Shown piece after piece: positions 34,809 to 52,331 of a stretch of DNA of 52,331 nucleotides (position 1 is its first letter; each line of letters starts with the position of its first letter). The notes beneath the pieces were generated by a model. It was given only the letters and a program-made list of their open reading frames with translations, did no database searches and had not been told where the DNA came from. The translations under genes and the position numbers were made by a program. This stretch comes from a virus (taxonomy: Duplodnaviria; Caudoviricetes): the IMG/VR virus record IMGVR_UViG_3300024520_000102, positions 1-52,331 of that record; one strand, 5' to 3'.

Positions 34809-36278
34809 TTATCGCTTAACGTTGGTAGCTTTAATGATGATACCACCCGCCCCCACCGCATACGGTTGGCCGCCTGCCATTGCAATAGCGTTATATCCGG
34901 TGTTGGTGATAGCGTCTGTTAGTTCCCATGTTCGCCCACCATTGATACTGTATACAATTGTACCCGGATTTGAACCAGCCGCCTTATTGTACACTACCCA
35001 AACGGTACAGCCGTCAACGACCATATCAATGCCGGTATTGCCCGTAGCGCCGGGTACTGATAGCTCGTTAATAACTTCGTCCTGCTCAATCAGCGTATAG
35101 TAAAATTCGCCAGTGGCAGTAAATGCAAGCCATGCCTCATCACTCCACTCAAGAGATATGATATTGCCGGTGATTGTGGCTTGGCTGATTGAGCTTTCTG
35201 TCCAACTCTCACCGCCGTTTTTGGTGAATAAAACATGACCACTATCGCCACCAACTAAGCCGGTAATGTCGTCAAAGAACGAGCCGGCGTTCAAGGAATC
35301 AGAGCCGTGAGCCACGCCATCATATAGTTGAGACCAACTAATGGCGTTGTCCTCAGAGACGTAGATTTCTCCGATAGAGGTTAGCAGGAATAGTTTATTG
35401 TTAGGGCCTTCAAACAGCGCATTAGGGCCACCTGCTACGCCAGCGGTAGCGAGTGGGACGGCGGTATAAGTAATGCCGTCATCAGTATAAACGATGTCAA
35501 CGCCCGGCGTTAGTTGAACGTTTAAAGCGTAAACGTTACGGACAAAGCCGCCTGAAATTGTGGCAACAACAGAGGCGACGCTATCAAGAATAGCGGTACT
35601 AATGTCGCCCGTCCCGTAAATCTCACCCTGAACACATCTGTTAGCGAGTGTAACACTTTGCAGAGTTGAGGTATCATCCTCTCCAGCCGCTACCATCGTT
35701 TCACAAGCGGCAATCGTATCATCACAACCAGCGCCACAGTTATTCTCATCATACGCAAAATCAACAGCGTTGATGTCATAGGGGTAGGCGGTGTTAGGGA
35801 TGTCAACTAGTTGATATGGTCTGATCTCGGTAACGTCAGATGGGCTTGCAATCATCGTGTAAGTTTTACCTAACACGTTATCAGCCCTGAAATCTCCACC
35901 TAATCCGGTTACTCCAATTGATTGAAACTCGGTATTTTCAAAGCGGTACACAACTTGCCACCCACCAAAAACGCCACGTTTCGGGCAATGGAGAGACATG
36001 TAAATAACCCAATCACATTTACCCTCGCTTACTAGAGTATCAAACCAGTTAGCCTCGGTGTCAAAGCTACTTTGAATTGTTAGCTCTACATCTTCTGGAG
36101 CGTCTAAGGTTTTGGTGGTCGCCTCATACTTGCCAAGCGAATTGATACAATAAACGGTTGTTTTTGTACCTTCTGAAATTGTAAAATCATCGGGCAAACT
36201 ACACGGAATTTCATAAATCTCATCGCTACAGTCTGGTTGTAGCCATAATGTAGCGCCACGACTTGTTAATTCTGTCAT
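34809..36278 (-). CDS. major tail (tube) protein with C-terminal BNR-repeat beta-propeller
   Basis: position before terminator and chaperones; Asp-box repeats SEDNAISWS, TKNGGESWT, SINGGRTWE. Confidence 0.7.
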   Translation of the reverse strand: MTELTSRGATLWLQPDCSDEIYEIPCSLPDDFTISEGTKTTVYCINSLGKYEATTKTLDAPEDVELTIQSSFDTEANWFDTLVSEGKCDWVIYMSLHCPKRGVFGGWQVVYRFENTEFQSIGVTGLGGDFRADNVLGKTYTMIASPSDVTEIRPYQLVDIPNTAYPYDINAVDFAYDENNCGAGCDDTIAACETMVAAGEDDTSTLQSVTLANRCVQGEIYGTGDISTAILDSVASVVATISGGFVRNVYALNVQLTPGVDIVYTDDGITYTAVPLATAGVAGGPNALFEGPNNKLFLLTSIGEIYVSEDNAISWSQLYDGVAHGSDSLNAGSFFDDITGLVGGDSGHVLFTKNGGESWTESSISQATITGNIISLEWSDEAWLAFTATGEFYYTLIEQDEVINELSVPGATGNTGIDMVVDGCTVWVVYNKAAGSNPGTIVYSINGGRTWELTDAITNTGYNAIAMAGGQPYAVGAGGIIIKATNVKR

Positions 36279-40045: not shown

Positions 40046-40272
40046 TACACCCCTATTTTTACGGTGTTATCCGCCGTGTCTCTCCATAACTCATTAACAG
40101 CCGCTCCCGCCGCCCCTTGGTTCGCACCGGATTTTAAGCCGGTGAGAAACAAAGATGACATGGTAGGGCTTGCCGATGGGTTGATAGTGGCAGAGACATT
40201 AACACCGGTAACGCTAAAAATAATGTGAGCGCTGTCAACGAAACGAAAAAACAAACGAGTGGCAAGGCTCAT
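40045..40272 (-). CDS. small virion-associated hypothetical protein
   Basis: start set at MSLATR (TAATG coupling, GGAGG RBS). Confidence 0.55.
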   Translation of the reverse strand: MSLATRLFFRFVDSAHIIFSVTGVNVSATINPSASPTMSSLFLTGLKSGANQGAAGAAVNELWRDTADNTVKIGV

Positions 40273-40595
40273 TAAGTCACCTCCACCGTTGAGGCGTTCC
40301 AAATTACGTCTATATCAGAACCGCCCGCATTGGCTAAGTTGAAAGTAACATCAAACTTTTGATGGTCGAGGTTCAACCCAAACTTATGAGTTGACGCAGG
40401 CGGTAAAATCTGACTATGACTTACCCCTGCTGTGTCGTCAAACGTGATGGTGATTAAGTTACCGCCCGGATTGTAAAAATCCATCTGGCGCATATTAACC
40501 GATGTTACCACGTTCACATTGCCGCCGTTGGGGACGGTGACGGATGCCCCTTCCATTACCCAAGCAACCATGCCCCTAACTCTTCCGATTGCCAT
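40272..40595 (-). CDS. hypothetical beta-rich virion protein
   Basis: 107 aa, coupled. Confidence 0.55.
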   Translation of the reverse strand: MAIGRVRGMVAWVMEGASVTVPNGGNVNVVTSVNMRQMDFYNPGGNLITITFDDTAGVSHSQILPPASTHKFGLNLDHQKFDVTFNLANAGGSDIDVIWNASTVEVT

Positions 40596-42780: not shown

Positions 42781-45138
42781 TTATACCATCCTCATTAGCT
42801 CTAACTGAGCATAGATATTTTCGCCAGTTTGGGGGGCATATGGGGCTGTAGGTGGGGTGTAATCCCCCGGTAACACTGTAGACATTTTTATTTCATCCAT
42901 GTAACCGTTTAAATAGGTAACATCTCCATGCCCAAAGTTCAAGGGTACCGTGCCGTCAGTCATCGAAGCCGTAAACGGTGCGCCAATAGCCGCCCCATCA
43001 ATATAAAATTGGAAATTACCATTATCTCTAACCAGAGCTAAATAATACCACGTGGAGAGACTGGCGGACCATGATCGGGTCGTCGTCGCTCCTGTGGTAA
43101 TGAGTTTTAACTCGTTATTGGATCCGTTAAACTCTACATAGTATCCTAAATCGGACCCGCCCACTAGTTTGTGCAAAAACGGAACTGTTCCAACTAGTGA
43201 CGACAAATAAAACCAAAAGCTGATTATAAAATCAGAGGTGTTGCCGAAGTTAAAATCAGCATGATTGGCGGTAGTTAGATAATCTCCCGCACCATCGAAT
43301 TTAATGGATGTCGTTCCAAAATTGGGCTTAACGACAGTTGTTGAATGCTCGACATTACCCACGGGTGTCACGACATGCCCAAGTGCGCTATCTGTAAAGA
43401 TAGTACTGCCATTCGTTGTGTCGCTATGGATTAGTAATACATCGCCCTCCGCATTTGGAGCGCCAAAAGTTCCGGTGGTCGTCGCACGGTGTACCAATTG
43501 TAACGAATCTCCCGGCTGTAAGGTTTTAACGGTTGACATTGACGACTGATCTGTAGATGAGTTAATCCCCAAATCGGTCACACTGCCATTGTATTTTAGA
43601 GCTAGTTTATTGTTACCCGCTCCGGTTGATGTAGCCTGAGCGCTGATCTTGTATTGTCCACCTTGCCCCGCCGCAATGGTTGCAGTATTGGCGGCTATTG
43701 TCGCCAATGTTGGGCCAGTGGTGTCGTCTAAAGCCCGCACCCGCCAAGCTCCAGAGGTGAACGCTCCGCCCGTCTCAGATTTAATAATCTGAATAGCGGC
43801 GTTTACCGACTGAGCAACGGAGGCATTAACAGCGGCGGTAAAGTCGCTGATTGTCGCCGCTACTTGCGTCCCTGTGTGATTAGCTCGGTCTCGGTCTGTG
43901 GCGTGATAATGCAATGCGCTAGTACCAGCGTCCGTTAAGTCAACAGCGTTACTAGTGGTTAGAATTGTGCCGTTCTCATCTGGCATGGTCACCGTTCGGG
44001 CATTGCCAGTTAAGATTTGGGAGGCATCAAAGGCGATAAGTTTAGTCGGGTCCGCTGTGTTACCTATACGAAACGTCCCGTCCAAGGTGTTAGCCGCTAC
44101 CTCGGCATTGATTGCCGTGGATAAGTCGCTAATGGTTGCGGCCAACTGAGTTCCGGTGTGGTTAGTTCTGTTTCGGTCTGTGGCGTGATAGTGTAAGGCA
44201 CTGTCACCCGCATCGGTCAAGTCGGTAAACTGGGTATCAGTTAAGATAGTCCCGTCAGCATCCGGCATGGTCACCGTTCGGGCCTGACCCGTCCCAACTC
44301 CAGTAGCATCAAACAAAATTCGCTTGGTAATATCGCCTGTGTTGTAGATTTCAAACGAGCCATCTGCGAAGGTCGTAATAGCGACGGGCGGCACTGCGTC
44401 AACGGTTAGCTTTACAAACTCAATCGGAGTTGTCTCAAGGGTGATGGCTGGAGTTGTACAGAAAAACAGGGTTTCAGCCCCAACCGTACCGTTAAGTGGG
44501 ATACATTTGCGCTCTATAATCTCAATATCGGTATTTGCATCTGCTGACCGAGTTCCACCGACATCATAAAGGCCGTTTTGTCCACCAGCGGTCTGATTCT
44601 TGACTAGAATTCTGTCAGCCGCTACCAAGACATACCCATCAATGATATCGCCAATATCTAAATCAGTACCAAGTGTTATGTTTGCCGTTGTTGCAACCGC
44701 TACATCAGCCCAGAACGTGCCAGTGGTGAGAGCGTCAGCGTATGCTTTGGTGACGGCATCTCCTGACAGAGTTGGTGTGCCTAGATCGGTTATTTTATTA
44801 CCCCCCATATCAATGACTGGAGCGGTTAGGGTTTTATTTAACAGTGTTTGCGTTGCGTCAAGTAGTGCGAACGTGCCATTAACATCAGGAAAAATAAAGG
44901 TTCTAGTTGTCCCTGCACTAATACCCGTTAGGTCATACTCGACTATTTTACTCTGTACAGCTTCGTTATAAAGCTGTAAATCCGCATCTGAGAAGACAGG
45001 AGTACCGACAACGCCAGTACCACTAAAGTCTTCCATAGCCGCAACCACTCTGTCACCCCAATTCAAATGAGTACGGGCTGGGCTGTTGGCTATTCGCTCC
45101 CAATTTAGAGCCTTTTGTATTAGCTGATTGTCTGCCAT
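42781..45138 (-). CDS. fibre/decoration protein with internal repeats and C-terminal LamG/concanavalin-like domain
   Basis: DRILVKNQT...NGLY; duplicated RTVTMPD...NHTGTQ.AATISD; FDGAGDYL...WYYLALVR...NGYMDEI. Confidence 0.75.
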   Translation of the reverse strand: MADNQLIQKALNWERIANSPARTHLNWGDRVVAAMEDFSGTGVVGTPVFSDADLQLYNEAVQSKIVEYDLTGISAGTTRTFIFPDVNGTFALLDATQTLLNKTLTAPVIDMGGNKITDLGTPTLSGDAVTKAYADALTTGTFWADVAVATTANITLGTDLDIGDIIDGYVLVAADRILVKNQTAGGQNGLYDVGGTRSADANTDIEIIERKCIPLNGTVGAETLFFCTTPAITLETTPIEFVKLTVDAVPPVAITTFADGSFEIYNTGDITKRILFDATGVGTGQARTVTMPDADGTILTDTQFTDLTDAGDSALHYHATDRNRTNHTGTQLAATISDLSTAINAEVAANTLDGTFRIGNTADPTKLIAFDASQILTGNARTVTMPDENGTILTTSNAVDLTDAGTSALHYHATDRDRANHTGTQVAATISDFTAAVNASVAQSVNAAIQIIKSETGGAFTSGAWRVRALDDTTGPTLATIAANTATIAAGQGGQYKISAQATSTGAGNNKLALKYNGSVTDLGINSSTDQSSMSTVKTLQPGDSLQLVHRATTTGTFGAPNAEGDVLLIHSDTTNGSTIFTDSALGHVVTPVGNVEHSTTVVKPNFGTTSIKFDGAGDYLTTANHADFNFGNTSDFIISFWFYLSSLVGTVPFLHKLVGGSDLGYYVEFNGSNNELKLITTGATTTRSWSASLSTWYYLALVRDNGNFQFYIDGAAIGAPFTASMTDGTVPLNFGHGDVTYLNGYMDEIKMSTVLPGDYTPPTAPYAPQTGENIYAQLELMRMV

Positions 45139-45141
45139 CGG

Positions 45142-46113
45142 TTACACCCCCTTTGTCCACAAGCCAGCTAAGGCATGGTTGCCATTGGTAGCCGCTTTCG
45201 GTGACTGTAACAAAAGTTGATCACCATCCTCTAACACATCGTCAGTATCATCATTGTTGATATTGCTTTTACTAAATTGTGCCGTAATTTGTTTGGCCCA
45301 ACTCGGCTGGGCAATTGCTACCCGTGCTTGTTGCTCTCGTTTTTGAGAGGCAACGACGCTTTTAGTCAACGTGTCAACTTGGGCTTTTAACTCAATGACG
45401 GTACTAGCCAACGCCGTAATAACCTCACGAACCTCTGCCATTTCCACATTTGGAACGGGTTCTGGCTGTTCATCTTCCTCAACAACCGCCTCCGTAATTG
45501 GCTCCGGTTCGGGGTGTTCACCCCCCTCAACGTCCTTAGTAAATACGCCGGATTGCTCCAGCCCCTCAGCTTTGGTGTCAAGCTCTTTTTCTAAATCTGC
45601 AATAACTCCTGCAATCAATGCAGGTAACATTGCTTTTTGTTGTTCGGTAAATGCCATCTTTTCATCCTCCACAATTTTAACTTCTGTAAAATGGTTAGCC
45701 GCTCGTTTAAGAGGTAAAATACTGGCCTCGTAAGAGCGATATTTTGTGATTATTTCTTTTCCTGTAGCCTCATCAATTTCAACTACAACTTCATTAGCGC
45801 CGTGAGACATGCCTAATTCACCATAACGGGCGCTCATATCCTCAACAATACTAACTTCATCTGCTGAGATAGGCCATGCCATTGCAAAAAATGCGCCACT
45901 ATAACCCCACCATTCCGCCCTAGCTTCAAAAGCTAGTTTTGCTGAATGACGCTGGAGTAATAACGGCGCATTGGATGGGTTTTCGTTTAGAAACTTCTCA
46001 AAATCACGATGGGCATCGTCGGTTATAGTTTGCTGTTCTCGGTCTTGAAAACGATTAGTGAACACACCAACTAAATATGCCCTTTCGCCATCTTGTTTGA
46101 TTAGTTTTAACAT
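45142..46113 (-). CDS. prohead protease/scaffold
   Basis: FQDREQQTI, LGMSHG, YEASILP..AAN protease motifs; acidic coiled-coil C-terminus. Confidence 0.75.
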   Translation of the reverse strand: MLKLIKQDGERAYLVGVFTNRFQDREQQTITDDAHRDFEKFLNENPSNAPLLLQRHSAKLAFEARAEWWGYSGAFFAMAWPISADEVSIVEDMSARYGELGMSHGANEVVVEIDEATGKEIITKYRSYEASILPLKRAANHFTEVKIVEDEKMAFTEQQKAMLPALIAGVIADLEKELDTKAEGLEQSGVFTKDVEGGEHPEPEPITEAVVEEDEQPEPVPNVEMAEVREVITALASTVIELKAQVDTLTKSVVASQKREQQARVAIAQPSWAKQITAQFSKSNINNDDTDDVLEDGDQLLLQSPKAATNGNHALAGLWTKGV

Positions 46114-46166
46114 TTAATATTCTAACAGTTGATAATTTAATATTAAAGCATTAGTTTAAAAAAATA

Positions 46167-46240
46167 AAGCGAGAACGGGAATCGAACCCGTCAAATGGGG
46201 CTTATGAAACCCCCGTCCGCACCAGCCGACATCCCTCGCA
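46167..46240 (-). tRNA. tRNA with CAT anticodon (Met or Ile2), no encoded CCA
   Basis: GGGGT-TTCATAA-GCCCC anticodon arm, ACGGG-TTCGATT-CCCGT T-arm, GCGAGG/TCTCGC acceptor. Confidence 0.8.
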
Positions 46241-46256
46241 ATAATTAGACGTTATG

Positions 46257-46285
46257 AATTTACCATGATAAGGATAAATTGTCAA
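46257..46285 (-). promoter_or_regulatory. sigma70 promoter for the tRNA
   Basis: TTGACA-N17-TAAATT with TG extension. Confidence 0.75.
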
Positions 46286-46306
46286 GAAATCAATTAAACG
46301 TTAAAC

Positions 46307-46334
46307 AAAAAAGCGCCGAAATCGGCGCTTTTTT
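46307..46334. terminator. bidirectional intrinsic terminator downstream of the mini-array
   Basis: AAAAAAGCGCCGA-AA-TCGGCGCTTTTTT. Confidence 0.85.
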
Positions 46335-46348
46335 GTTTGTATATTGGT

Positions 46349-46440
46349 CTTGCAGTATCCTCTGTAGCGGATCGTAGGGTAACACCAAAATTCGTGATCA
46401 TTGACGAAACGGGATGGCTCTTGCAGTATCCTCTGTAGCG
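46349..46440 (-). CRISPR. mini-CRISPR array: truncated repeat, 34-nt spacer, full 37-nt repeat
   Basis: CTTGCAGTATCCTCTGTAGCG at 46349 and 46420; minus-strand repeat GTGTTACCCTACGATCCGCTACAGAGGATACTGCAAG with hairpin and ACTGCAAG 3' tag; no cas genes. Confidence 0.75.
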
Positions 46441-46449
46441 AATAATCTA

Positions 46450-46749
46450 TTATACAGCAACTAGCCCACATTCGGCAATACCTACAACATAATCATGGTC
46501 TTTAACTTTAACAAAAACCTCTGCCACAGGCCGGATATTATTATAAAATTTCATATGCCTATCTGGCTTTATGCTAATATTGTTATCTTTCTGCTTCTGT
46601 AGCATTTCAATATAAATAGATATTGTGTTGCCTGGCAATTCATCCCTCATATCATTTTTAATATGAGAAAGCGCTTCATCAAAAGTATTGAAAAAATCCA
46701 AGCAAACTTCATTATTACATCTATCATATACTAAATAATTTTTTCTCAT
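46450..46749 (-). CDS. hypothetical protein ending in a copy of the portal C-terminus
   Basis: AT-rich 99 aa ORF; both end CGLVAV. Confidence 0.6.
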   Translation of the reverse strand: MRKNYLVYDRCNNEVCLDFFNTFDEALSHIKNDMRDELPGNTISIYIEMLQKQKDNNISIKPDRHMKFYNNIRPVAEVFVKVKDHDYVVGIAECGLVAV

Positions 46750-46758
46750 CCAATTCCC

Positions 46759-48702
46759 TTACACCGCAACTAGCCCACATCCACAATGGTAGCCTTTACA
46801 AGCTAACCCTCTACTTCTCGGCAATAGTCCACCATCCTGCCACTGTTGGCCCGTCTTCATCTGCCCGTTAAAGCCCAAACAAGTGGTACAGTTATCTTTT
46901 CCTACCGTTATGCGCCACTGCAAAAGGCCCAACGCTAAGTTATTAACAATCCCTAATTGATTAAACCATTCTATATTGTTGACATACTTTGGTATCTGGT
47001 TATTAAAAATACTGTTAATTGCCTTCCGTTGCTCTGCTCTTGCCAAGGCTAAAGCGGCAATAATCGAGGCTGTGATTGTGCCGTTCTCAATCATTGATTG
47101 AGTTTCAGCGTCAATAACGGCCTGTTGTTCAGCGGTTGGTGTTACGGTGTTACTACCCTCCTGAAAAGCTCTTAGGCCAAAGCCAGCGATTAACGCCCCT
47201 AACGCATCATTATAATCACTCTCGGTAATCTCACCGTCAACCAACTGCTCTGTAATCGTCTCAAGTTGGCTTTCAAACTGAGTGCCGGAAGTTGACTTTT
47301 TTACCTCTTCGTCTTCCTCATCATCTTCTGTTTCCTCATCCTCCGGTGGCTGTTGTTGTGCTATCTCCTCTGCTTTTGCTTGGCGCTCTTCTGTTCGTTG
47401 TTGCTCCTCTTCATACTGTTGGATGGTGATAATCTCATAATCAAAGGCTAGTTTCTGTTGTGCAACTTCTACCGACATCAGGCCCGAATTAACCGCCGTG
47501 CTTAAGTTACTAATCCTCATTCCCTCAATTTCGGCTTCTAATTTATCCTCTTGTGCATCAACAAAATCGTGAATGAAATAGCAGTTATCTGGAGCAAACC
47601 ACTTATTGAGATTGTACGTCATCATCCCCAAGAACCAAGCGGGTAACTTGCCCGATGACTTTTTGTCCTCTATTTCAGCCGTGGCCGCTGTTCTCCCAAC
47701 CGAACCAGAGCGCCAAAACTCGCTAATGTCCATATCAAACGCTAGTGCTAGAGCGTAGAAAACATCGTCTAATGTTCTAGCACGGTCATAGCCTTCGGGA
47801 AACTGATTTAACTCCATAGCTTGGGGCATTTTTGCATCAGGATCGTTAATCATAATCAACGGAGGGCGGGTATAATGCTTATGCCCTAATTCGTTTGAAC
47901 GTTGGTATTGCTCGTTCAAACTCTCACTCATCCCCTCCTTATGTTTCGGATGCCACCCTAGACCGACCCAAATCTGACGCATTGGCCTATCGCCATAACT
48001 CTCAAGTTCAATATTAACCGCCGCATTGCCTAGTTCTAGCATCTCCAAAGCTCTGGAAATGGGGCAAAAGCCAACGCCTAGCATTTTAGCCCGACTGCTT
48101 GGCGCATCACTAAAAAACATAGCTCTGGAGCGATGGATTTTAATAAACTTATCATCCTTTGGGCGTTGGTAGAGTAGCGGCCATGTGGCGTGCCCTGTTC
48201 TCTGAACCCGTAGGCTATCTAAGGCAGTTAGGCCCGTTGGATATGTATAAAAGCCCGTGCCGACTAGCTCAGTCGGTCTCAGGGCCGTGCTATATGCCCC
48301 TTTGCCGTCAATCAACATAAACCCGCCGTTGTCTGTGTTAAACACATCAGAAAGGAATTGCTCACCAACGTTAGGCCAGTTATCGTCTAGCACTTGCTGG
48401 CTAATTTTAGACTGTTGCACGTTAGCGTCATCATCAGGGTCTAACGGCACACTCTTAAATTTCATTGCCTTGACCTTTTTTACCATCGCTTGGGTTGCGG
48501 AGGCGGCGGCAAAATTGCCCTGTACAAAGTCAACTAGGGCCGCATCGCGGTACTTAGACCAGTAAGCTGGTAAAACGCCGCTAGTGGCGCTTGTGTGCTG
48601 TAGGTAGTCATTCAGGAAGGGTAGCGAGCCTACACTGATGCCGTTTCCATTTAACTCGTTTATGTCTCGTTTTTGCTGTGGTATATCGAATTCGTTATTC
48701 AT
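46759..48702 (-). CDS. portal protein fused to a MuF/gp7-like head morphogenesis domain
   Basis: DNGGFM, GVGFCPISRA, ALAFDMD portal-like region; acidic linker; C-terminal W...CTTC...G...CKGYHCGC. Confidence 0.78.
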   Translation of the reverse strand: MNNEFDIPQQKRDINELNGNGISVGSLPFLNDYLQHTSATSGVLPAYWSKYRDAALVDFVQGNFAAASATQAMVKKVKAMKFKSVPLDPDDDANVQQSKISQQVLDDNWPNVGEQFLSDVFNTDNGGFMLIDGKGAYSTALRPTELVGTGFYTYPTGLTALDSLRVQRTGHATWPLLYQRPKDDKFIKIHRSRAMFFSDAPSSRAKMLGVGFCPISRALEMLELGNAAVNIELESYGDRPMRQIWVGLGWHPKHKEGMSESLNEQYQRSNELGHKHYTRPPLIMINDPDAKMPQAMELNQFPEGYDRARTLDDVFYALALAFDMDISEFWRSGSVGRTAATAEIEDKKSSGKLPAWFLGMMTYNLNKWFAPDNCYFIHDFVDAQEDKLEAEIEGMRISNLSTAVNSGLMSVEVAQQKLAFDYEIITIQQYEEEQQRTEERQAKAEEIAQQQPPEDEETEDDEEDEEVKKSTSGTQFESQLETITEQLVDGEITESDYNDALGALIAGFGLRAFQEGSNTVTPTAEQQAVIDAETQSMIENGTITASIIAALALARAEQRKAINSIFNNQIPKYVNNIEWFNQLGIVNNLALGLLQWRITVGKDNCTTCLGFNGQMKTGQQWQDGGLLPRSRGLACKGYHCGCGLVAV

Positions 48703-48804: not shown

Positions 48805-51075
48805 TTAAAACATTTGACGTTGACCTTCTTTAATATTTAATATTTTCATATTTTTAACTGCAAAATCGAAATACGATGGTTTTAATTCGCATCCAATCGC
48901 ATCACGCCCCATCCTTAATGCCTGATAAACTTCGCTTCCAATCCCCATAAACGGTGTGAATACTGTTTCATCCGGATTTGTCCATAAGCGAATACAACGC
49001 TCAATTGTGCCTAGCTGGAGAGGGCATACATGCCTCTCATCGTTAGCATGCCGTGCTTTTTGAAAGCCTTGTAATGTGTCACTTTCGAGAATGTTATACC
49101 ATGTGGCAGTCATTCCACTATCGGCGGCTCTGTCTTCCTCTCCATCTTCAAAAACACCGGGCCATATCGGATTAGCTAATTCGATCCATCCGTCTCCATC
49201 CATCCCACCCCTAACTGGTATCTGATTTTCTCCGTCCTTTCGGAACTTCAAAATATAATCAGGCAGAGCAGGGCGTAGCCATACTCGGTCTTTTTTCATT
49301 TGCGTCATAGTCAGAGCTTTTGAATGAGTGCGGATGCTTTGCGCCTGCTGGTTTTTATCTATCGGTATCCTGCCATCAAAAATCCAACCTTCGGCAATGT
49401 ATGCTCGTATAACATCACCGCTAAAATCTTTAAGACCAATATAGCCATCTTTCCCAAGCATTGCCGGAATATCCGCAACATGTACAGCCGTAACACGCCC
49501 CGGCTTTGTAATACGCAAAAGATCACGAATGATATATTTGTAATGGTTGAAAAATGTATCACTATCGGAACTATTACCTAAATCTCGCTCAGTCGGCGTG
49601 TATGTGTACAAATCTACAAAAGGAGGGGAGTATACACTCAAATCAATCGAGCAATCATCCATGCTATTCATGCGCTCACAACTATCACCTTTCATCAGTT
49701 TGTATGATTGTTCCTGAAAAGTTCCATTTACCGTATCGGTCTCGTATTCAAACTTAGATTGATGCCCACCTTTCAATGTATCGCTTTGAATTTCTTTAAT
49801 CAGTACATTCCCCATATCTAAAGCCCTCTCTCCTTTTTTGATAATGTTATCATATATCGCCTGCTCTATTTCGGTAAACACAATCCATACATTCACCTTT
49901 TCATCTTGCCCAAATCGCCACTGCCTACGAATTGATTGATAAAATATCTCCCAACTATCGGATATTCCGCAGAATATCATATTGTGGCAATGCTGAAAAT
50001 TCATACCAAAACCTGCTATTTTAGGCTTTGTGATTAAGTGTTTTTCGCCGTCTAGGAATTGCTGAAAACGTTCTAATTTTTGATTTGGTTTGTGTTTACC
50101 TGCAACCTGTACACTGTCAGGTAATTCGTTTCCCAATTTATCACATTCGGCATTGAACCATCCCCAAATCAAGAATTGTTCATCAGGATTTTTGGCTACA
50201 ATATCCAAAGTCGCATTAACTTTATCTGCCATTGTAACCTTGCGAACCTTAGCACGGTCACTAATACCCTTTAATCCCGTATTAAACATTTTACCATCAC
50301 TCATGTCATGCTTATGGTCAACGATGACGGGGATATAATTTATTTTTGGCAAAATGTAACCATCATCTGAATAGTCACCAATATCAGATGGTAACTTGAG
50401 CGTAATTGACCAACTGGAAACCCATCTATAAAATCCCTCTCTCCCATGTTTACGCAGTCGCCACCCCTTATCATCGTGAACAAAAAACTTAGCTAACATT
50501 TCCTCACGGCTCATAACCCCAAGAAATGCCGCATGGTTAGCCATTTCTGCCACGTCATTAGGTGCAGGCGTAGCAGTGAAGGCGAAACGATATGGTACGC
50601 ATGCCCAATCTTGAATGAGCTTAGTTTTAGTTTTACCTGCGATTGACTTGAGAATGGAACTCTCATCTAAGTACAAGCCCCCAAACGTTGACGGGTCAAA
50701 CTTATCTAGCCGTTCATAGTTTGTGATATAAATATCATCATGAAAGTTTATGTCTGAGTTGTTTTGAGCATATTTAATCTCAATACCGAACAACTCCTCA
50801 GCTTGTTTAATCGTCTGATGTGTTACGCCTAACGGCGCTACAATCAATTGAGGCTTAGTTGTAGCCTCCGCTATTACTCTTGCCAGTTCAATTTGCATGA
50901 TAGTTTTACCTAGCCCCGTATCGGCAAAAACAGCATAGCGGCCTTGCTCAAGAGCCAATTGTATAATTTTTGCTTGAAATGGAAACAATACTGAATGAGG
51001 TACATAATCAATATCCACAGATTGACCATTCCATACTACAGCCTTGGTATGTAAAAACTCTTTATAAGTACTCAT
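48805..51075 (-). CDS. SNF2-like helicase fused to an N4/N6 DNA methyltransferase (beta class)
   Basis: DTGLGKT, LDESSILK, TATPAPND, GFGMNFQ, IRRQWRFGQ; then SPPF, HVCPLQL, TPFMGIGSE, GCELK. Confidence 0.9.
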   Translation of the reverse strand: MSTYKEFLHTKAVVWNGQSVDIDYVPHSVLFPFQAKIIQLALEQGRYAVFADTGLGKTIMQIELARVIAEATTKPQLIVAPLGVTHQTIKQAEELFGIEIKYAQNNSDINFHDDIYITNYERLDKFDPSTFGGLYLDESSILKSIAGKTKTKLIQDWACVPYRFAFTATPAPNDVAEMANHAAFLGVMSREEMLAKFFVHDDKGWRLRKHGREGFYRWVSSWSITLKLPSDIGDYSDDGYILPKINYIPVIVDHKHDMSDGKMFNTGLKGISDRAKVRKVTMADKVNATLDIVAKNPDEQFLIWGWFNAECDKLGNELPDSVQVAGKHKPNQKLERFQQFLDGEKHLITKPKIAGFGMNFQHCHNMIFCGISDSWEIFYQSIRRQWRFGQDEKVNVWIVFTEIEQAIYDNIIKKGERALDMGNVLIKEIQSDTLKGGHQSKFEYETDTVNGTFQEQSYKLMKGDSCERMNSMDDCSIDLSVYSPPFVDLYTYTPTERDLGNSSDSDTFFNHYKYIIRDLLRITKPGRVTAVHVADIPAMLGKDGYIGLKDFSGDVIRAYIAEGWIFDGRIPIDKNQQAQSIRTHSKALTMTQMKKDRVWLRPALPDYILKFRKDGENQIPVRGGMDGDGWIELANPIWPGVFEDGEEDRAADSGMTATWYNILESDTLQGFQKARHANDERHVCPLQLGTIERCIRLWTNPDETVFTPFMGIGSEVYQALRMGRDAIGCELKPSYFDFAVKNMKILNIKEGQRQMF

Positions 51076-51470: not shown

Positions 51471-52331
51471 TTATGCAATCGCCATGCCCCCTGTATCGCT
51501 CAAATCCGCCCCAAATACCGCCGCATCTAACCTATTTGGGCTTGGGTCGCCCGGCTTCCACGTGGTCATTTCCGCCTCTAACTCCGGCAAGTCGCCTACT
51601 ACGTGAGCCTCCCCGCTTGCAAATTTTACCGCCAACGGTTCAGCCCTAAGCCGTTTGCCTCTGGAGGATGTCACAACCCTGACAGGGATGTTCTTGCCTC
51701 CCTCAGTTTGAGCAATCGAGTACTTGACCATATCCCCGCCGTAGTTCTTCTCAGCGATAACCTCATCAGCTTGCCAGTCGTTGTAAGCCTTAATTACGGC
51801 CTGAAACCTAATGGCGACCTTACCCCGCAAAGTGTAATCGGCCAAAATGTAGGTGTGATAATCGGCGCATTGCCCGACGACTACAATCCCTTGAGAGTCA
51901 CCGTCTTCTGAACCGGACGGGTCAACGCCGATAACAATTGTTACCATCTCTGGCGCTCTTGCTATTCTGGTTTCGGCTATTAAGTCGTAAGACCAGAGCG
52001 CTCCCTCTGTGTCCACGTCCCATGACCCCTCACGCCACAGTTGCCCTAATCGGCCCTTGAGTGATTTGAGGTATCGTTCATACTCTTTATTGATGAACTT
52101 GTTATCGCCTAATTTGGTGTGGACGTATCGAGTTTGGGGACTTCGGGTCTTAGGGTCAACGAAATGGCTTTTATACCACAGATGCCCGATACCGCCCGGA
52201 TTTGAGGAGGCGTATAATCTCGGAACCCATCCCTTTTTTGCACTTCTCAACGAACCCCTGATCAAATCATAATGATTTTTAGCCGGTGAATTAGGTATTG
52301 TGGTGGTATCATCAATGGCAACTATATCATA
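51471..52331 (-). CDS. terL: terminase large subunit, 5'-truncated by the window edge
   Basis: frame open to the edge (YDIVAIDD); SSNPGGIGHLW; IVIGVDPS, AEKNYGG, SPNRLDA nuclease motifs. Confidence 0.92.
   Translation of the reverse strand, partial: YDIVAIDDTTTIPNSPAKNHYDLIRGSLRSAKKGWVPRLYASSNPGGIGHLWYKSHFVDPKTRSPQTRYVHTKLGDNKFINKEYERYLKSLKGRLGQLWREGSWDVDTEGALWSYDLIAETRIARAPEMVTIVIGVDPSGSEDGDSQGIVVVGQCADYHTYILADYTLRGKVAIRFQAVIKAYNDWQADEVIAEKNYGGDMVKYSIAQTEGGKNIPVRVVTSSRGKRLRAEPLAVKFASGEAHVVGDLPELEAEMTTWKPGDPSPNRLDAAVFGADLSDTGGMAIA

Follow-up and report, generated by a model that had tools for sequence, protein, structure and literature searches.

The stretch of DNA examined here, referred to as the window, is the entire 52,331 bp of IMG/VR virus record IMGVR_UViG_3300024520_000102, a linear contig that is estimated to be about 51% complete. 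[quoted passage not shown] This order of parts had been proposed in an earlier note made by inspection of the letters, and it is confirmed by our analysis, with the repeat length of 37 nt taken from comparison with related repeats. The note had placed the element at positions 46349 to 46440, which takes in the 21 identical bases of the two repeat units and misses 3 nt of the first unit, whose end is at 46443. The shortfall arises because a mismatch between T46441 and C46370 restricts the uninterrupted identity to those 21 bases.

Table 1. Features of the array locus and of the flanking region of the window, listed from high to low coordinates
Feature	Position	Strand	Remarks
Terminase large-subunit fragment	51471-52331	minus	
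Fused helicase and DNA methyltransferase	48805-51075	minus	single open reading frame (ORF) of 756 amino acids (aa), between the terminase and portal genes
Portal-like ORF	46759-48702	minus	647 aa; ESM Atlas leads to portal and Mu-F-like proteins, all viral
99-aa ORF	46450-46749	minus	upstream of the array; stop codon 6 nt before the first repeat unit
Candidate sigma-70-like promoter	46478-46449	minus	TTGCCG, 18 nt, TATAAT; consensus scan, 10 of 12 matches
First repeat unit	46443-46420	minus	ATTCGCTACAGAGGATACTGCAAG; 24 nt, 5'-truncated; stem-loop ATTC...GGAT (one G-U pair) retained
3' tag of the first unit		minus	ACTGCAAG; 8 nt, retained in the truncated unit
Predicted mature CRISPR RNA (crRNA)	46427-46357	minus	71 nt before 3' trimming; predicted from the general Cas6 rule
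Spacer	46419-46386	minus	AGCCATCCCGTTTCGTCAATGATCACGAATTTTG; 34 nt, unique
Full repeat	46385-46349	minus	GTGTTACCCTACGATCCGCTACAGAGGATACTGCAAG; 37 nt
Intrinsic terminator	46338-46295 (stem 46338-46303)	minus	17-bp perfect stem with a GC-rich core, then a U-tract
tRNA-Met (CAT)	46240-46167	minus	directly past the array terminator
Structural module		minus	past the tRNA; head and tail genes, with Laminin_G_3, BNR-repeat, and minor-tail or tape-measure-like proteins

Apart from this single difference, all bases of the first unit (23 of 24) are the same as the 3'-terminal 24 nt of the full repeat, and the pair is also catalogued among the direct repeats of the window with a spacing of 71 nt (family D2). 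The 21-nt core that is common to both units occurs twice in the window, and two matches to it were found in none of 100 dinucleotide-shuffled versions. The first unit is regarded as a 5'-truncated copy, since the 13 nt located immediately upstream of it do not resemble the 5' portion of the full repeat. The phage by itself duplicates only 24 nt, and the length of 37 nt therefore comes from family comparison: the one full copy begins with GT at the expected distance, and its 5' boundary was set by homology. Where the full repeat has the box CGATCCG, the first unit has the degenerate version TTATTCG. The hairpin of the full repeat (ATCC pairing with GGAT) has a predicted stability of -4.2 kcal/mol, equal to the values for a related genomic repeat (locus L065) and for a second phage array (G406), both of which are described below.

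The terminator starts ten bases past the full repeat, and an A-tract on its other side makes it potentially bidirectional. Its stem is present in the minimum free energy fold, with a z-score of -3.8 for a stretch of 166 nt. A search of the window with Rfam models yielded no match at the gathering threshold. When matches with E values up to 10 were admitted, the array region attracted 70 of them, all sub-threshold and nearly all located on the terminator hairpin, where they reflect the terminator hairpins of small RNAs. One of the models, CRISPR-DR10, aligned to exactly positions 46349-46385 with 11.7 bits and an E value of 6.8 (the gathering score is 39), and it is treated here as a sub-threshold lead only.

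Further evidence regarding the nature of the array was supplied by its relatives. We scanned the collection genome_contigs for two copies of the 3'-terminal 12 nt of the repeat (GGATAYTGNAAG, with degenerate positions) located 45-75 nt apart. At least 120 genome loci were recovered, and 101 of the 120 loci listed are Chloroflexota by record title, including Anaerolineae, Ktedonobacteria, Chloroflexia, Dehalococcoidia, Caldilineae, Ardenticatenia, and Thermoflexia (taxon labels were taken from the record titles, and four taxa were verified). A family set was then defined as repeats with at least three identical copies in a locus, which gave 77 distinct repeats among the matches listed, and all counts for the family refer to those matches. 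Chloroflexota-labelled records contributed 71 of the 77, and the other six come from records that include Saprospiraceae, Atribacterota, and Clostridiales. An initial suspicion that the phage repeat was cyanobacterial, or was related to the array of a cyanophage, was dropped when the genome scan pointed to Chloroflexota.

The family can be summarized as a 37-nt class 1 repeat with the formula GT...CGATCCG...(A)GGATACTG(A/C)AAG that is found mostly in Chloroflexota. The sequence CGATCC is present in 74 of the 77 repeats, 62 start with GT, and the tags carry GAAAG in 71 cases, GCAAG in four, and GTAAG in two. Its 3' end, GGATACTGNAAG, consists of the 3' half of the stem plus the 8-nt tag, and both phage units carry GGATACTGCAAG. 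Agreement in this 3' motif is by construction, since the 3'-terminal 12 nt served as the search key. The full repeat of the phage also has the GT start, positions CGATCCG as do the family members with an 8-nt loop (L065 and L032), and exhibits the rarer CAAG tag. The CGATCC(G) box, which was not a search criterion, forms the 5' half of the 4-bp stem and is located 6-8 nt upstream of GGAT. Among the matches listed, the members closest to the phage repeat are those of L065, from a metagenome-assembled genome (MAG) of Dehalococcoidia, and L032, from a MAG of Caldilineaceae, each with 27 of 37 positions identical, followed by three loci (L112, L110, and L021) at 26 of 37.

An independent test made use of the part of the repeat that had not been searched with. 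The 5' 25 nt of these 77 repeats were turned into a sequence-only model (R1), which was run against the whole window with filters off. Its best match on either strand fell at 46366-46378 of the minus strand, inside the full repeat, with a score of 6.8 bits. The corresponding E value of 0.64 is weak for a blind search, yet the top-ranking site among approximately 105,000 positions is the predicted place.

Several of the related arrays are accompanied by cas genes. The array at L032 follows genes for Cas7/DevR, a Cas6-domain protein, Cas1, Cas2, and Cas4; that at L065 follows Cas7/DevR, Cas4, and Csa1; that at L112 follows a type III RAMP protein, Cas4, and Csa1; and that at L033, whose repeat has the CAAG tag of the phage, follows Cas1 and Cas4. 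Another array with the CAAG tag, from Ktedonosporobacter rubrisoli (L047), has no cas gene within approximately 3.5 kb. Judging from this gene content, the repeat family serves class 1 systems of both type I-like and type III-like character. The earlier note had suggested that the phage repeat resembles a class 1 family of Chloroflexota, and this proved correct, in that the family is 37 nt long and makes up multi-spacer arrays beside class 1 cas genes. The note had also named an outcome that would refute its reading, namely the lack of similar repeats in any cas-linked array together with a lack of processed RNA, and similar repeats are present at the four loci just described. At the level of sequence, membership of the phage repeat in this cas-linked 37-nt class 1 family is supported.

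Counterparts of these cas genes were sought in the phage itself. The 17 Cas proteins encoded at L032, L065, and L112 were used as single-sequence queries (phmmer) against the 462 stop-to-stop frames of the window, and nothing was found at E values up to 10. Likewise, Pfam models for Cas6 (PF10040, PF01881), DevR (PF01905), and RAMP proteins (PF03787) had no matches in the window. At the sensitivity of these single-sequence and four-model searches, no Cas homologue was found in the 52,331 bp, and the earlier description of the array as lacking cas genes holds only for the assembled half of the genome because the contig is approximately 51% complete.

A complete phage genome with an array of the same architecture was encountered when the two-copy scan was applied to the collection viral_contigs, which returned eight loci, six of them with unrelated repeats. 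This phage, G406 (locus L135), has a genome of 43,506 bp with 82-bp terminal repeats and is rated 100% complete by CheckV. Its array (positions 8050-8290 of L135, or approximately 40090-40330 of G406) comprises a truncated unit (TGATCCGTTTGAGGATACTGAAAG) and then two spacer-repeat pairs, in which spacers of first 37 nt and then 36 nt each precede a full repeat of 37 nt; the last repeat is directly abutted by an extra repeat tail of 17 nt. The tag is ACTGAAAG and the loop has 6 nt, and direct repeats of 24 nt beginning with TTGACGTGCCT flank the array on both sides. As in the window, the first repeat lacks everything up to a point immediately 5' of the stem. The complete G406 genome encodes primase, helicase, methyltransferase, and terminase-like proteins, and searches of it for Cas homologues found none. 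The two phages are unrelated, with one helicase-like protein in common at 34% identity. Both G406 spacers matched only G406 itself in viral_contigs. The arrays are therefore alike in repeat family, truncation, lack of Cas homologues in the DNA searched, and possession of unique spacers for which no target was found, whereas the number and length of the spacers, the tag, the shorter loop, the tail, and the flanking repeats set the G406 array apart.

Two further loci deserve mention as observations in their own right. A fragment from IMG/VR (L134; 6178 bp, rated 13% complete) has at least three identical 37-nt repeats of the family in its last 190 nt or so, and no Cas homologue was found on it; it may be an array of a phage or a piece of host DNA that was misclassified. 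On the reverse strand of a metagenome contig (L124; 2451 bp), at approximately 2220-2330, a family repeat with the CAAG tag is separated from a degenerate repeat by a spacer of 35 nt. These elements are situated approximately 230 nt upstream of a cas8-like gene (E value of 7e-101 to a protein of L032) and point away from it, and the spacer has no seed match within the contig. L124 could represent a host mini-array that functions as a crRNA-like regulator.

The array sits among phage genes. The record encodes terminase, portal-like, tail, and tape-measure-like proteins, the genes neighboring the array are all on the minus strand, and the array is in their sense orientation. In the 756-aa protein, an SNF2-type helicase (PHROG 16, 62) is combined with a DNA methyltransferase domain (PHROG 67, 498). 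The 99-aa ORF matched no PHROG and no Pfam family. Its stop codon is so close to the first repeat unit that the array has no leader. This stop codon is overlapped by the -10 box of the promoter candidate, which ends 5 nt before the first unit; promoter calls of this kind are matches to a consensus pattern, and the promoter type of the host may differ. ESM Atlas matches of the 647-aa protein, which are confined to viruses, offer no hint of the host, and relatives of this protein were found neither in viral_contigs nor among the phage records. Likewise, none of 50,697 phage records is related to the window phage by DNA.

Other features of the neighborhood were noted along the way. A direct repeat of 22 nt (20 of 22 positions identical) occurs on the minus strand at 46450-46471 and 46759-46780, where it provides the last codons and stop of the 99-aa and 647-aa ORFs, both of whose products end in ...CGLVAV. 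TATAAT is present only in the copy adjacent to the array. The duplication may be a trace of the event that inserted the small ORF between the array and the portal gene, or it may be a duplicated regulatory site. The tRNA gene has a promoter-like site of its own at 46285-46257 (TTGACA, 17 nt, TAAATT, with a TG), and together with the array it constitutes a small non-coding island in the head and packaging module. Further along, the structural-module proteins encoded at 34809-36278 and 42781-45138 contain a region that resembles a BNR/Asp-box beta-propeller (weak matches to PF14870 and PF02012) as well as a Laminin_G_3 domain of the concanavalin-A-like kind (E value of 1.8e-13), and they are candidates for receptor-binding or decoration functions.

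The locus was also looked for in sequencing runs from the environment. Three seawater DNA runs from three studies carry all or some of it, and one of them may be the source of the record; no RNA run was listed as carrying it. Identical pieces that include 46276-46412 came from a run that is independent (X2), with 46413-46454 uncovered, and in another run (X3) the array is not covered. Across positions 45600-47400, the DNA contigs of the three runs exhibit no variant, indel, or joint where there is coverage. In one X2 contig the match ends at 46305, within the terminator, and is followed by approximately 255 nt of unrelated sequence; it could derive from a variant genome or from another organism sharing the tRNA region.

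What the cassette contains is exactly what one crRNA needs: a stem-loop that bears a tag, a spacer, and a complete downstream repeat. With moderate confidence, we propose that it is a leaderless phage mini-CRISPR array that provides a single crRNA to class 1 effectors of the host, with the spacer acting as a guide against a competitor. Cas6 enzymes generally cleave at the 3' base of the repeat stem, which leaves an 8-nt tag at the 5' end of the crRNA. We infer that transcription of the minus strand would either extend into the cassette from the upstream genes for the portal and the small ORF or begin at the adjacent promoter-like site, which, if real, implies a start at or beside the first unit. 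Transcription would end at the strong terminator. Cleavage of every repeat unit by host Cas6, 8 nt short of its 3' end, would then release one crRNA that starts with the tag ACUGCAAG, continues through the spacer of 34 nt, and finishes with a 3' handle, which is computed to be 29 nt if each repeat is cut in this manner. This RNA would be loaded into the host's own class 1 effector (type I and/or type III), which would be directed at a competing mobile element and thereby bring about superinfection exclusion. The earlier note had suggested that host Cas might be turned on a competitor or on a host gene, or that the element might be an RNA anti-CRISPR.

The host of the phage is likely a marine member of the Chloroflexota, a suggestion that comes solely from the taxonomic bias of the repeat family. 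To our knowledge, this phylum has almost no cultured phages.

A number of observations weigh against this proposal. The earlier note had stated that the truncated repeat keeps the hairpin and 8-nt tag required by Cas6, and both are indeed present, G-U pair included. The hairpin (ATTC pairing with GGAT) is marginal, with a predicted stability of just -0.9 kcal/mol, and so processing at the first unit may be inefficient. The spacer is also short for the family: the 1519 family spacers among the matches listed are most often 36 nt long, with extremes of 29 and 45 nt, and only 23 of them have 34 nt (29 are 34 nt or shorter). Moreover, published viral mini-arrays match the repeats of their hosts, whereas the nearest relatives among the matches listed reach only 27 of 37 positions here. 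Finally, the contig comprises only about half of the genome, and cas genes could lie in the missing half.

The searches for the exact repeat point in the same direction. The shared 21-mer has no exact match in viral_contigs or genome_contigs. A scan of metagenomes for CGATCCG-N8-GGATACTGCAAG resulted in five single-copy matches and no array; four of these appear chance-like or unrelated (two are the same sequence), and the fifth is L124. In 401 sampled Chloroflexota genomes there was no array and one solitary unit at 3 mismatches. Thus, the repeat comparison advocated in the earlier note did recover a cas-linked family with a bias toward Chloroflexota, and the exact variant is in no array of the collections searched. 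The solitary unit (L128 1475-1526, from the Chloroflexota genome G286) is intergenic, lacks neighboring copies, and is identical to the 3' part of the phage repeat at 23 of 26 positions; by our own estimate, approximately 0.05 such matches are expected by chance in 401 genomes. The G+C content of the phage, which is approximately 42%, and the six family repeats (of 77 among the matches listed) from records not labelled Chloroflexota keep the host assignment tentative.

The target of the putative guide was equally elusive. The earlier note had reported no spacer self-match by eye, and this holds: the window has no second copy at up to 3 mismatches, and the best ungapped match to a diverged copy is 20 of 34 positions, the same as for shuffled spacers. 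The note had proposed a comparison of the spacer with viral and host sequences, and no protospacer was found in the three collections searched. Spacer seeds of 24, 18, and 18 nt had no exact matches in viral_contigs, the 50,697 phage records gave only a 22-nt match with an E value of 4, which is not credible, and the 401 Chloroflexota genomes contained no match at up to 3 mismatches. Because the collections contain no relatives of the phage, these searches would have missed a target in a sister phage. In the reverse comparison, 1672 spacers from family arrays among the matches listed produced only chance-level matches of 13-25 nt to the window and to G406.

The absence of a full-length target in these collections is also what would be predicted for an RNA that regulates by partial pairing, and this introduces another explanation. 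The element might serve as an RNA counter-defence, either by mimicking host crRNA and titrating Cas6, Cas7, or Cas5 into dead-end complexes in the manner of Racr RNAs or by acting as a crRNA-like regulator of the Cracr type, whose spacer would pair partly with a host cas or toxin promoter so that the host effector represses its own immunity genes. We judge this to be possible and somewhat unlikely. Both mechanisms have been described for phages (PMC10651486; bioRxiv 10.1101/2024.10.29.618823). As in crRNA-like elements, the first repeat is a truncated one with a degenerate stem, and a promoter-like site is located directly upstream. The position of L124 near a cas8-like gene suggests that hosts of this family may possess such regulators. 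However, L124 was picked by our own search pattern, and its tag and loop length are not independent evidence. Racr RNAs are solitary repeats without spacers, whereas the window has a full-length spacer and a complete second repeat, and the G406 array has two spacers of canonical length. When the phage spacer was compared with L124, L032, and L033, only chance-level seed matches of 9 nt were obtained, and L065 and L112 had none; no seed match of at least 9 nt exceeded chance in any of the five. The 219 published Cracr candidates belong to types V-A, I-F, I-E, I-C, and I-B from three other phyla (bioRxiv 10.1101/2024.10.29.618823).

The truncation point common to two unrelated phages invites a related, and to us doubtful, proposal. 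Phages that encounter this Chloroflexota-type repeat family might have converged on a single-guide cassette that functions as a viral crRNA-like regulator rather than as a weapon against rival phages. Such a cassette would comprise a promoter, a repeat reduced to the Cas6 stem-loop and the 8-nt tag, a spacer, and a full repeat, with a terminator at its end. The identical truncation point would then have been selected, and the truncation would remove the spacer-integration site along with most of the homology that is able to delete the spacer. The type I or type III effector of the host would be turned on host cas or toxin promoters, and L124 may hint at a host-side counterpart of this regulator.

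The same truncated and stem-mutated first repeat could instead be a sign of decay. According to this explanation, which we consider unlikely, a fragment of a host array was captured passively by illegitimate recombination and has no present function. The failure to find a target or an identical host repeat in the collections searched would fit such a history, as would the idea that phage mini-arrays gain spacers by recombination with host arrays (PMC7099407). Recombination is also indicated by the 22-nt duplication adjoining the locus and by the 24-nt repeats that flank the array of G406. However, the fragment consists of exactly one complete crRNA unit in the sense orientation of the operon, situated between a promoter-like site and a strong terminator. 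The 21-nt cores of the two units are identical, the unrelated and complete phage G406 shares the truncation point and has intact repeats, and the locus is identical, in the part that is covered, in the second seawater sample X2.

It is very improbable that the array belongs to a self-contained CRISPR-Cas system of the phage whose cas genes reside on the unassembled half. A linear contig of about 51% completeness leaves room for such genes, and phages with full or partial CRISPR-Cas systems do exist (PMC11656645). However, the array is embedded in the module for packaging and the head, with the portal gene on one side and the tRNA on the other and far from cas-like genes, one-spacer arrays are typical of viral mini-arrays without cas genes, and no cas genes were found in the complete genome of G406 either. 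There is almost no chance that the element is unrelated to CRISPR (a chance direct repeat, or paired protein-binding or attenuator sites), as could be suspected from the presence of just two copies with 24 nt in common and no Rfam match at the gathering threshold, because the core was never found twice in the shuffled sequences and the 12-nt 3' motif, CGATCCG box, GT start, 37-nt frame, and spacing all fit one cas-linked family.

The array can be placed among other elements that viruses are known to carry. Viral mini-CRISPR arrays represent a known route by which viruses borrow host immunity, and documented examples come mainly from viruses of Sulfolobales and from prophages of well-studied bacteria. 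Faure and colleagues are said to have reported leaderless mini-arrays of phages and prophages in 2019. Hence, the window array opens no new category, given that viral mini-arrays lacking cas genes are already established (PMC6858448; PMC7099407; PMC11656645). The leaderless mini-arrays of phages and prophages have one or two spacers, no cas genes, and no leader of the host type, as does the window array, and their spacers are thought to be gained by recombination rather than by adaptation. [quoted passage not shown]

The mini-arrays of SPV1 and SPV2, portogloboviruses of Saccharolobus (Medvedeva et al. 2019, PMC6858448), offer another close comparison. These arrays also have one or two spacers, lie between genes, and occur in the absence of viral cas genes. 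Their repeats likewise belong to a class 1 family of the host, and their RNAs are proposed to be loaded into host effectors against a competitor. However, the SPV1 and SPV2 arrays have host-like leaders with promoters, full first repeats, and repeats matching those of the host, and their spacers demonstrably match a sister virus (PMC6858448), whereas no target of the window spacer was found in the collections searched. The window array has no leader, its first repeat is truncated, its best repeat match among those listed is 27 of 37 positions, and its bearer is a tailed bacterial phage rather than an archaeal virus.

Racr RNAs (Camara-Wilpert et al. 2023, PMC10651486) resemble the window element in being derived from repeats, in lacking cas genes, and in having a promoter-like site just upstream. 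These RNAs are without spacers, unlike the window element, which has a near-canonical spacer and a complete downstream repeat (PMC10651486). The hallmark of a Racr is a solitary repeat, and the window has two units 71 nt apart that enclose a unique spacer. By the SRUFinder procedure, a solitary full match that has a partial match within 100 bp counts as a mini-array (PMC10651486), and this is the architecture of the window element. Cracr RNAs (Liu et al., bioRxiv 10.1101/2024.10.29.618823) are encoded by phages as units of a spacer and a degenerate repeat, through which the Cas proteins of the host are reprogrammed, and some of them form small arrays. Their defining property is that the spacer is partly complementary to the promoter of a host cas or toxin gene. 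The published examples are found in Pseudomonadota, Bacillota, and Actinomycetota (types V-A, I-F, I-E, I-C, and I-B; bioRxiv 10.1101/2024.10.29.618823). If the regulator explanation were true, the Cracr principle would extend to a new phylum and to systems that depend on Cas6.

In the accessible parts of the literature searched, there is no report of mini-arrays of the Chloroflexota type or of ones in phages of that phylum, and published lists may include either contig. The window array and that of G406 would extend the range of viral mini-arrays to phages confronted with class 1 systems of the Cas6-dependent kind that is typical of Chloroflexota. For an uncultured and otherwise orphan marine phage, the repeat also provides a testable hint regarding the host. 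The most interesting detail is the truncation point common to the two phages, which leads to a hypothesis about the minimum that a virus must carry for a guide RNA to be processed.

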